From the IMG/VR virus record IMGVR_UViG_3300035191_000049: 64,000 bases of DNA, one strand, 5' to 3'. This document shows positions 35,876-37,417 of the stretch, one piece after another. Every line of letters starts with the position of its first letter. Within the stretch, counting starts at the first letter, position 1. Origin of the DNA: a virus. A model generated the notes under the pieces. That model was given only the letters and a program-made list of their open reading frames with translations, ran no database searches and was not told the DNA's origin. Both the position numbers and the translations under genes were made by a program.

Positions 35876-36184
35876 ATGTTCGCAGATACAAAACTTGTCC
35901 TGGTCTTCCCGAGACCACAAACAGAATCCTTCCGCAAGGCCATCGAGGATAGCTTTCAGCCCAACGGCGGTCTCATTGCCCAAGGCGCCATTTTCTACGT
36001 CGACCCGGCTCCTTCACTCGAACAGATCGAGTACGTTGTCCACAACCAAGACCGCGGCGTCAAGGGAAAGCTCAAGCTCGTCGGCATGAAAGAGGAGACG
36101 ATGGAGGTGTTTGACCCCGTCGTCTCCAGCGTTGAAGTCAGGGAGATGAATCAGACGTACCGCGTCCACGTTCAGGCTGGCTAG
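35876..36184 (+). CDS. hypothetical protein
   Basis: ATG 2 nt after tRNA CCA. Confidence 0.45.
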   Translation: MFADTKLVLVFPRPQTESFRKAIEDSFQPNGGLIAQGAIFYVDPAPSLEQIEYVVHNQDRGVKGKLKLVGMKEETMEVFDPVVSSVEVREMNQTYRVHVQAG

Positions 36185-36645
36185 TCGTCGACCGGCATCT
36201 CTTCGGATTCACCCGTCAGGTATTCGAGCAAGTCCACCCGGCCTCCGTAGCTCGCCGGGATCGTCTTCAGCTTCTTCCACACATGGGCGAGGAACCGGTG
36301 GTTTCCGTCGGTGATGATCGGCTCTGGATAGATCGCGAGGACGGGGCCTGGGCAGAAGCTCTGGTTCCCGCACCTGTTGTCCACCTCGATGGGGTCTTCC
36401 ATGATGGACGGCGTCTCGGCGATGTAACGAATGCGCTCAGCGTGAAGGCGAGCATTCCATGGCCCCTCACCCCAGCCAATGTAGGGCGCCTCGTTCTCGC
36501 CTCTGACCTCATCGAGCATCTCCAGCCTGAACCCTACACCCCAGGGATCGTAATCCGGCCCCAGCATTGCCCAGAGACGCTCGACCAGGAGGTGGTCTAC
36601 ATAATCCTCATGTGAGGTGATAGAGTCTGATTCTTTCTTTGCCAT
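36181..36645 (-). CDS. ParB-like nuclease domain protein
   Basis: 'ITDGNHRFLA' ParB/Srx DGxHR motif. Confidence 0.45.
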   Translation of the reverse strand: MAKKESDSITSHEDYVDHLLVERLWAMLGPDYDPWGVGFRLEMLDEVRGENEAPYIGWGEGPWNARLHAERIRYIAETPSIMEDPIEVDNRCGNQSFCPGPVLAIYPEPIITDGNHRFLAHVWKKLKTIPASYGGRVDLLEYLTGESEEMPVDD

Positions 36646-37417
36646 CTTCGGAACCGATGAGGTCATCGAACATGCTGAAGGGGTTTTCTTTCTCCCATCC
36701 ACCAAGGTCCAGCCACAGCGCCGCCCCGTCAAGCGCTGCACGCCAGATGAGCGGGTGCTGAGTCGAGACGATGAATAGAAGACGATGACCTACCAGCGAA
36801 AGCTGACACGCCGTTTCGCAAGCATTCTTGATCAGCCCCATGAAACGGAAGACGTTTTCCAAGCTCAGACCAGCCTCAGGCTCATCGAGTGCGACGACGA
36901 CCGACTTGTTCGCGAGCAGGTCTTTCTGAGACGGTTTGAGCACCATGCTGTGGAACTTGTGCAAATTGATCTCGCCATGGCTCCCCTTCGCCATCGTGAT
37001 CGCCAGATCCTCCATCGTATCGAGAGCGAGTGCCCGTCTTCGCGACGCGTCTCCGGCGAACCGATAAACACTGTCATATTCTTCAGGCAGAGTCAGTAGT
37101 CCGAATGTCCTCACTGCCTGATCGACTCCGAAATGTCCATGAGACGAGCTTCTTGTCGACTCACGAGAAAAGTACTCGTCGTCGAGACCGAGCCCTGCAC
37201 AGAGCGCATTGATGAGCGTCGTCTTTCCGATGCCGTTGTTCCCGGTGATCACCGTTGCCGGTTCGATTTTGAACCTTTTCTTACGCTTGAAGAAGTTTAG
37301 CCGTTTGATAGGGTTTTCCACCCCCTTCTCGCCTTCAGCCACCTTTCCACCGTACACCCTCTCCGGGATCGTAACGGTGATCGCTTTCACTTTGTCTTTG
37401 CGCGCACCAACAGACAT
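36608..37417 (-). CDS. ABC-type/AAA ATPase
   Basis: Walker A 'GNNGIGKTT', Walker B 'VVVALDEPEAGLS'; start codon abuts TAACACATGCAA palindrome. Confidence 0.55.
   Translation of the reverse strand: MSVGARKDKVKAITVTIPERVYGGKVAEGEKGVENPIKRLNFFKRKKRFKIEPATVITGNNGIGKTTLINALCAGLGLDDEYFSRESTRSSSHGHFGVDQAVRTFGLLTLPEEYDSVYRFAGDASRRRALALDTMEDLAITMAKGSHGEINLHKFHSMVLKPSQKDLLANKSVVVALDEPEAGLSLENVFRFMGLIKNACETACQLSLVGHRLLFIVSTQHPLIWRAALDGAALWLDLGGWEKENPFSMFDDLIGSEDGKERIRLYHLT

Follow-up and report, generated by a model that had tools for sequence, protein, structure and literature searches.

An ABC-type ATPase gene overlapping a ParB/sulfiredoxin-fold gene in a huge-phage genome: probably two independent accessory genes in one transcription unit

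Two overlapping genes and the proteins they encode

The two genes considered here lie in a 64,000-nucleotide stretch of viral DNA (IMG/VR record IMGVR_UViG_3300035191_000049; referred to as the window), both on the minus strand. One encodes an ABC-type ATPase of 269 amino acids (positions 36608 to 37417), as judged from the open reading frame (ORF), its motifs, and a family alignment, and the other a single-domain protein of 154 amino acids with a predicted ParB/sulfiredoxin (Srx) fold (36181 to 36645), as judged from an alignment of 50 homologues and a structural model; we refer to the latter as the ParB-like protein. The 3′ end of the ATPase gene overlaps the start of the ParB-like gene by 38 nucleotides (36608 to 36645, minus strand), with the stop codon TGA at 36608-36610 and the start codon ATG at 36645-36643. 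This agrees with the overlapping two-gene layout proposed in an earlier interpretation made from the letters alone (the sequence-only reading), which had taken the pair for a possible defense or antidefense cassette of the kind frequently carried by prophages. The same 38-nucleotide overlap is kept in a relative, L004, which is 84-93% identical. Both ORFs are real genes held by purifying selection: in the nonoverlapping parts, the comparison with L004 gave a ratio of nonsynonymous to synonymous substitution rates (dN/dS) of 0.04 for the ATPase gene, with 93% amino acid identity at a dS of 0.77, and of 0.12 for the ParB-like gene.

The window reads as the genome of a free huge phage and not as a bacterial chromosome with a prophage, given its 33 tRNA genes (ARAGORN), and carriage by a prophage is not evident. 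Its gene content includes a major vault protein (MVP)-like protein, a PTH2 peptidyl-tRNA hydrolase, and radical-SAM, HNH, and HAD_SAK_2 proteins. Near-identity and protein searches of the INPHARED phages gave no near match to the window and nothing informative, and metagenome contigs of up to 124 kb carry proteins identical to those of the window.

The ATPase carries VITGNNGIGKTT (Walker A), an SHGE signature-like motif, and VVVALDEPEAGLS (Walker B, catalytic Glu, and D-loop). The residues in question are GNNGIGKT with K65, SHGE at 146-149, LDEPE at 177-181, and AGLS as the D-loop; their canonical order and the ABC nucleotide-binding-domain fold place the protein in the ABC ATPase superfamily. 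The H-loop position is taken by TQ(H), and a family-specific motif, DLGGW..NPF, is found toward the C terminus. The Pfam models AAA_23 and AAA_21 scored above their cutoffs, via the N-terminal P-loop region only, and the Walker A/B, AAA_21-like assignment made from the letters stands. Exhaustive phmmer searches recovered a sparse family of 230 to 260 amino acids, with 44 representatives, ∼20 of them at E < 1e-10, and a best identity of 41%; more than 170 proteins matched the ATPase profile. In the family alignment, G59, G62, G64, K65, S146, G148, D178, E179, and W241 are invariant, and the C-terminal motif, DLGGW..DPF, is specific to the family. Public gene callers also chose the ATG that gives 269 amino acids; an alternative GTG start at 37390 matches the N termini of the homologues better, and a longer ORF from ATG 37456 is open as well.

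Profile searches with the ATPase were dominated by its P-loop. In PADLOC, many ABC-ATPase models (mad3, AriA, PtuA, GajA, and LmuB) matched, each over ∼20 to 60 residues near the P-loop or Walker B; in NCBIfam no model came near its cutoff, and transporter models all scored far below theirs; and a sequence search of the PDB gave P-loop-level matches only. The protein is no nearer to SMC/Rad50 heads than to transporter nucleotide-binding domains, and it lacks the coiled-coil or dimerization insert found in AriA, PtuA, and GajA. A search with the full ATPase alignment keyed on the Walker A pattern alone and was discarded, the proteins returned being unrelated P-loop proteins of 570 amino acids. 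When P0052, P0053, and P0060 were each used singly to scan viral contigs, no true ATPase relatives emerged, and a shortened alignment (A5) matched two metagenome loci and none in viral contigs. We regard the protein as a compact orphan ABC-type ATPase, whose nearest described kind is the stand-alone ABC nucleotide-binding domain.

The ParB-like ORF carries IITDGNHRFLAH. Across the alignment of the 50 homologues (A1), D113, G114, H116, and R117 (DGxHR) are invariant, and an N-terminal VERLW helix, a GRIR motif, and a C-terminal YGGRVDLLxYLTG helix are conserved. The AlphaFold2 model is confident (predicted local distance difference test score of 87), and its top Foldseek matches are KorB, ParB, sulfiredoxin, Noc, SbnI, and PadC. 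In line with these, hhalign set DGNHR...DLLEYL of the ParB-like protein on GCHR...DLRVYL of human sulfiredoxin, the sequence of which was checked against the PDB. The modeled α/β core, with a box-II-type (D)GxxR motif at a strand-helix junction, has the features of the ParB/Srx superfamily, and the predicted structure of the 154-amino-acid protein is a single-domain ParB/Srx (ParB-CTPase) fold. Sequence profiles alone were much less informative. The window protein had no significant match in Pfam, PADLOC, or NCBIfam and touched only two PHROGs families, insignificantly (E values of 0.23 to 0.32); a search of PDB sequences with its profile gave nothing relevant. None of the 50 homologues matched Pfam ParBc (PF02195) or any PADLOC model, and 2 of the 50 touched PHROG 1033, annotated as a ParB-like partition protein. 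Pfam detected neither a helix-turn-helix (HTH) nor any other DNA-binding domain in the protein, which is also without a dimerization domain and a GERRxRA box. The family has at least 50 members, roughly 110 to 185 and mostly ∼135 amino acids long, in many different phages.

The sequence-only reading had called this protein a ParB/sulfiredoxin-fold nuclease on the strength of its DGNHR motif. Fold and motif are borne out. The nuclease label has not been established, since CTPase clamps, regulators that bind ATP or GTP, serine kinases, and sulfiredoxin all have this fold. We know of no agreed sequence signature that separates nucleases from nucleoside triphosphatases within the ParB/Srx fold, and the conserved E87-x-D89-N90 together with DGxHR would fit either activity. 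The fold and the invariant DGxHR motif suggest a role in nucleoside triphosphate (NTP) binding. A survey published in 2025 (PNAS, PMC12704722) reports that phages commonly encode short (∼100 amino acids) single-domain proteins of the ParB-CTPase fold, which is able to bind CTP, ATP, or GTP. The ParB-like family fits this class, yet it is invisible to the Pfam model.

Distribution of the pair and its control region

We found the ATPase and the ParB-like gene together only in the window phage and L004. In L003, a syntenic locus of a related phage, the ParB-like gene is 48% identical and stands alone, 117 nucleotides from a divergent gene of 210 amino acids, and there is no ATPase, even though the gene order otherwise matches that of the window (radical SAM, HNH, a 447/465-amino-acid gene, a 210/242-amino-acid gene, ParB-like, a convergent small gene, PTH2, and a 387-amino-acid gene). 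On the P0003 contig, where the ParB-like protein is 57% identical, the gene calls, which are all that was available, include no ATPase-sized gene adjoining it. In four more distant ParB-like loci, L005 to L008, on contigs of 42 to 198 kb and in two cases with integrases nearby, a check with a hidden Markov model (HMM) detected no family ATPase in the 5 kb to each side. Conversely, the ATPase loci L023 to L030, which represent five distinct contexts, contain no ParB-like ORF. Members of the ATPase family on phage-like contigs of 25 to 460 kb stand alone among small ORFs, and the two closer relatives from metagenomes have different neighbors, namely, a 128-amino-acid protein of no known function in L029 and ribonucleotide reductase with an HExxH protein in L030. 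One of the contigs, L026 (447,666 bp, phage-like), encodes two different small ABC ATPases of the broad family (P0107 and P0199), and its UDG, RtcB, and HAD_SAK_2 neighbors resemble the gene content of the window. Given that the pair occurs together only in the window lineage, an obligate ATPase-plus-nuclease cassette is unlikely.

The region upstream of the pair points to how the two genes may have met. A putative ancestral promoter/operator block, AATAACACGTGCAACATCCTGAGGACAA (37470 to 37497, minus strand), points to the ATPase and ParB-like genes and is kept in L003 as CATAGCATATGCTACGTCCTGAGGACAA. There, the upstream region of the solitary ParB-like gene (CATAGCATATGCTACGTCCTGAGGACAAG) aligns with the minus strand of the window at 37470-37497 (AATAACACGTGCAACATCCTGAGGACAAC), and the similarity between the two phages stops just downstream of the conserved block ATAACACGTGCAACATCCTGAGGACAA. 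In the window lineage, the ATPase ORF sits between this block and the ParB-like gene; the G+C content of its third codon positions is 0.64, compared to 0.71 to 0.79 for most neighbors. The simplest history to be read from these alignments would be a moron-like, lineage-specific insertion of the ATPase gene that separated the ParB-like gene from its ancestral promoter.

The control region contains three exact copies of AACAC(A/G)TGCAA, at 37418-37428 (plus strand), 37450-37460 (plus strand), and 37484-37494 (minus strand), which are the sole exact matches in the 64 kb. The first belongs to ATAACACATGCAAC (37416 to 37429, plus strand), a second full motif copy that abuts the ATG of the ATPase gene and is the inverted-repeat partner of 37483-37496, whereas the middle one, AACACATGCAA (37450 to 37460, plus strand), is a partial copy without the TA prefix, lying between the two inverted ones. 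The outer copies form a 14-nucleotide inverted repeat, 93% complementary and 53 nucleotides apart. The three operators that the sequence-only reading had placed in this promoter were of another word, ACATATG, which is absent from 37380-37720 and whose eight copies in the window lie elsewhere. All three copies found here are variants of a semipalindromic 12-mer, TA[AG]CA[CT][AG]TGC[AT]A, which occurs 9 times in the window versus 0.09 times in shuffled sequences. Of its sites (9457, 16104, 18576, 21914/21925, 33505, 37417, 37495, and 47534 in the window and 5913 in L003), those checked against gene positions mostly fall just upstream of gene starts, and a perfect palindrome, TAGCATATGCTA, is found at 21914 and in L003. 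Since it is present at many unrelated genes, the 12-mer is more likely a general promoter or regulator site of the phage than an operator specific to the pair; it is also kept in a related phage, and we consider it a candidate for a phage-specific promoter or regulator-binding site. The inverted copies are also predicted to form an RNA hairpin (minimum free energy of −36.6 kcal/mol, z = −2.9), the arms of which would cover the AU of the ATPase AUG. Occlusion of the start codon by RNA pairing is only a possibility, and we did not adopt a hairpin in the 5′ untranslated region as a mechanism because two copies of a motif acting at the DNA level account better for its arms.

Taken together, we consider it probable (roughly 60%) that the pair consists of accessory genes independent of each other, carried by a huge phage rich in tRNA genes and made into one transcription unit by a lineage-specific insertion. 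The ParB-like gene would have stood alone ancestrally, at the same syntenic position and behind the same promoter/operator block, as it does in related phages. Its product would bind and perhaps hydrolyze an NTP and would function during infection as a small switch or enzyme dependent on NTP, acting by itself in most phages. An orphan ATPase gene would then have been inserted, moron-like, between promoter and ParB-like gene, bringing about cotranscription and the 38-nucleotide overlap; the ATPase itself would be an independently mobile accessory protein, cotranscribed by chance in the window lineage. Both are new members of known superfamilies and ordinary accessory genes that match no known defense system. 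A physical or functional partnership does not appear to be required by the data and would not be our default reading; a functional link between the two proteins is possible but unproven.

Several points weigh against the two genes being independent. The overlap and the shared upstream region are kept in L004, as a functional pair would also show; an ATPase plus an effector is a common logic of conflict systems; and the PADLOC models mad3, AriA, and PtuA give weak partial matches to the ATPase. The role of an NTP-dependent switch is suggested by the modeled fold and the motif of the ParB-like protein. Loss of the ATPase in the other lineages would be an alternative to its insertion, the choice between the two resting on few lineages. 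Co-occurrence was sampled in five distinct genomic contexts per family, and the closest homologues of the ATPase (P0052 to P0055, 33-41% identical) were left out of the contig comparison.

Other explanations and the surrounding genes

A rather unlikely alternative is that the pair is a true two-component conflict module of recent assembly, used for defense against competing phages or for counterdefense. Here, sensing or powering would fall to the ABC ATPase and the role of NTP-dependent effector (a nuclease or nickase) to the ParB/Srx protein, the ATPase having been recruited upstream of a preexisting effector. Overlapping, co-oriented genes behind one control region that persist in L004, purifying selection on both, and the weak matches to mad3, AriA, and PtuA are in keeping with such a module, as is the sporadic, accessory distribution of both families, which is usual for conflict genes. 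However, co-occurrence is absent outside one narrow lineage, and the ParB-like protein evidently works without the ATPase in most phages. The PADLOC check proposed with the sequence-only reading did not favor defense either: the matches of the ATPase span only ∼40 residues around the P-loop or Walker B, none of the 50 ParB-like members has a match, and neither protein qualifies as a member of a defense family in PADLOC, NCBIfam, or Pfam. The ATPase, moreover, lacks the insert of AriA, PtuA, and GajA and is not closer to SMC/Rad50 than to transporter domains. The outcome that was to have spoken against the idea, a match to terminase or partition proteins in profile searches, did not occur, so a conflict-related role stays possible, if unproven. 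A more elaborate form, in which a newly inserted ATPase gates an NTP-driven nicking or clamping of DNA by the ParB/Srx protein, and in which a palindromic operator controls the two and, through its inverted copies, can also occlude the ATPase start codon in RNA, is speculative and strikes us as improbable.

We give similarly little credence to a scenario in which the ParB/Srx protein is a DNA-directed regulator or a DNA modification cofactor and the ATPase an unrelated passenger. The former would be an NTP-dependent repressor of the TAACAYATGCWA operators, in the manner of DndB or KorB, or an accessory protein like the factor of the ParB-dependent T-dioxygenases of phages. ParB proteins associated with T-dioxygenases are reportedly documented in phages. 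The ParB-like gene is always found in early or regulatory regions among small ORFs, including beside integrases or HTH_8 proteins in temperate-looking contigs, and the conserved semipalindromic motif lies directly upstream in both the window and L003. KorB, too, is among the best matches of the structural model, and DndB-like ParB proteins are documented (PMC12704722). Against a regulator speak the lack of a detectable HTH or other DNA-binding domain and the presence of the motif at many unrelated genes of the window, where it is more likely a general promoter element; against a modification cofactor, the adjacent genes of the window include none for Dnd, Ssp, or a dioxygenase, and NCBIfam gave no DndB or DndD match. 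Finally, a partition (ParA/ParB-like) or SMC-loading system that keeps the phage genome as a plasmid, although suggested by the ParB fold, the adjoining ATPase, and the two homologues touching PHROG 1033, is highly improbable and already contradicted by its own defining features, as the ATPase, with its SHGE and DEPE motifs, is of the ABC type rather than a deviant-Walker-A ParA, the 154-amino-acid ParB-like protein consists of one domain and has no HTH, dimerization domain, or GERRxRA box, there is no parS-like repeat array, and the pair is not conserved.

The far edge of the control region shared with the pair is formed by a divergent gene (37524 to 38183, plus strand), which encodes 219 amino acids from TTG 37524 and is syntenic with, and 36% identical to, the 210-amino-acid gene of L003. 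The TTG lies behind a conserved AGGAGG (37513-37518) and is likely the true start, rather than the ATG at 37455 chosen by the gene caller. A paralogous N-terminal domain (LFMTD..(F)RTNM.. and IA(I/V)PPRQ) is common to this gene and the adjacent one (38193-39590, plus strand). On the other side, a convergent ORF of 102 amino acids (35876-36184, plus strand) overlaps the ParB-like gene by 4 nucleotides, the palindromic CTAG at 36181-36184 providing both stop codons, and there is neither intergenic space nor a terminator between the two.

The sequence-only reading had also placed the pair next to an MVP locus. An MVP-like gene of 984 amino acids does lie at 30495-33449 (minus strand), with Pfam matches to MVP_shoulder (6e-15), Vault_3, and Vault_4, and a copy of the motif, TAACATATGCTA, precedes it at 33505; between this gene and the pair lie four ORFs and a tRNA, which makes "next to" a loose description. 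The tRNA gene at 35798-35874 (plus strand; ARAGORN, and Rfam at 55.7 bits), directly after the PTH2 peptidyl-tRNA hydrolase gene (35447-35776), has the anticodon UUA of an ochre (UAA) suppressor. This raised the idea of genome-wide recoding of TAA, which we rejected given that TAA ends 17 of 61 long ORFs; the tRNA may serve stage-specific readthrough or counterdefense. A dense array of 32 tRNA genes (44983-63537, minus strand), with most amino acids covered and ORFs interspersed, is typical of huge phages. In one of the distant ParB-like loci, L005, an AcrVA2-like gene (PF26125; 2878-3927 of the 198-kb contig) lies ∼1 kb upstream of the family member, a loose link between the genomic region of this family and antidefense genes.

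Comparison with known systems

The sequence-only reading had likened the pair to the ATPase-plus-nuclease logic of Gabija, Septu, and PARIS. Like these systems and OLD, the locus has an ABC-type ATPase beside a putative nucleic acid enzyme, a combination often carried by phages, and HMMs of AriA, PtuA, and GajA match weakly at the level of the P-loop. The likeness does not extend further: the window ATPase is half the size, has no insert or coiled coil, and matches no model over its full length, its partner has a ParB/Srx fold and is not a Toprim, HNH, or helicase protein, and the pairing is not conserved. PARIS consists of AriA, an ABC ATPase of ∼55 kDa, and the Toprim (DUF4435) nuclease AriB, and it was rejected given that the AriA HMM covers residues 55-96 only of a 269-amino-acid protein whose partner is not Toprim. 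Septu combines PtuA, an ABC ATPase of ∼450 amino acids with an insert, and the HNH nuclease PtuB; it was rejected since the PtuA HMMs match short stretches (E values of 1e-6 to 1e-4), the NCBIfam PtuA model scores 15 bits against a cutoff of 500, and the partner has no HNH domain. In Gabija, GajA is an ABC ATPase fused to Toprim and GajB a UvrD-like helicase, whereas in the window the GajA HMMs cover residues 43-92 only and there is neither a Toprim domain nor a neighboring helicase, which led us to reject it as well.

Dnd systems of DNA phosphorothioation also bring a ParB-fold regulator and an SMC-like ABC ATPase into one locus, with DndB (DGQHR, ∼350 amino acids), DndD (SMC-like, ∼650 amino acids), and the DndACE genes. 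The window pair shares this combination of a ParB/Srx-fold protein and an ABC-type ATPase, but its proteins are far smaller than DndB and DndD, neither has an NCBIfam DndB or DndD match, and with no DndA, DndC, or DndE gene or other Dnd gene in the neighborhood, Dnd was rejected. DndB is itself discussed among the ParB-CTPase-fold proteins (PMC12704722). The nucleotide-binding domains of ABC transporters differ from the window ATPase in that the latter has no membrane-domain gene nearby, SHGE instead of LSGGQ, TQ instead of the His of the H-loop in close family members, and the family-specific DLGGW..DPF tail.

Sulfiredoxin resembles the ParB-like protein in its single-domain size and in the alignment of GCHR...DLRVYL with DGNHR...DLLEYL. 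However, the catalytic Cys of its FxGCHR motif is replaced by Asn115 in the window protein and by His in most family members, and the context is viral, unlike that of sulfiredoxin. The ParB-like protein therefore cannot use the thiol mechanism of sulfiredoxin, and this identity was rejected. Canonical ParB of ParABS systems was rejected on account of the 154-amino-acid single domain without HTH in Pfam, the ABC-type ATPase as neighbor, and the absence of ParA from the gene lists. With Asn or His at the Cys position and with HTH and dimerization domain absent, the protein is thus neither a sulfiredoxin nor a canonical ParB.

The closest likeness is to the short phage ParB-CTPase-fold proteins of the 2025 survey (PMC12704722), which are phage encoded, ∼100 to 150 amino acids long, made up almost entirely of the fold, and marked by a box-II-type DG(H/N)HR motif, with NTP binding as their presumed function. 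The window family differs in being too divergent for PF02195, in its own N-terminal helical extension of ∼60 residues, and in its YGGRVDLLxYLTG C terminus. The locus currently opens no new mechanism of defense or antidefense, and it cautions that an ATPase next to a putative nuclease is not a system without evidence of co-occurrence. If the two genes are indeed independent accessory genes joined by insertion, the locus would illustrate cleanly how huge phages accrete genes in moron-like fashion, and the short phage ParB-CTPase-fold proteins, a growing set, would gain a family that is invisible to Pfam. With at least 50 members, an invariant DGxHR, and the YGGRVDL motif, this family would be a reasonable target for NTP-binding assays.

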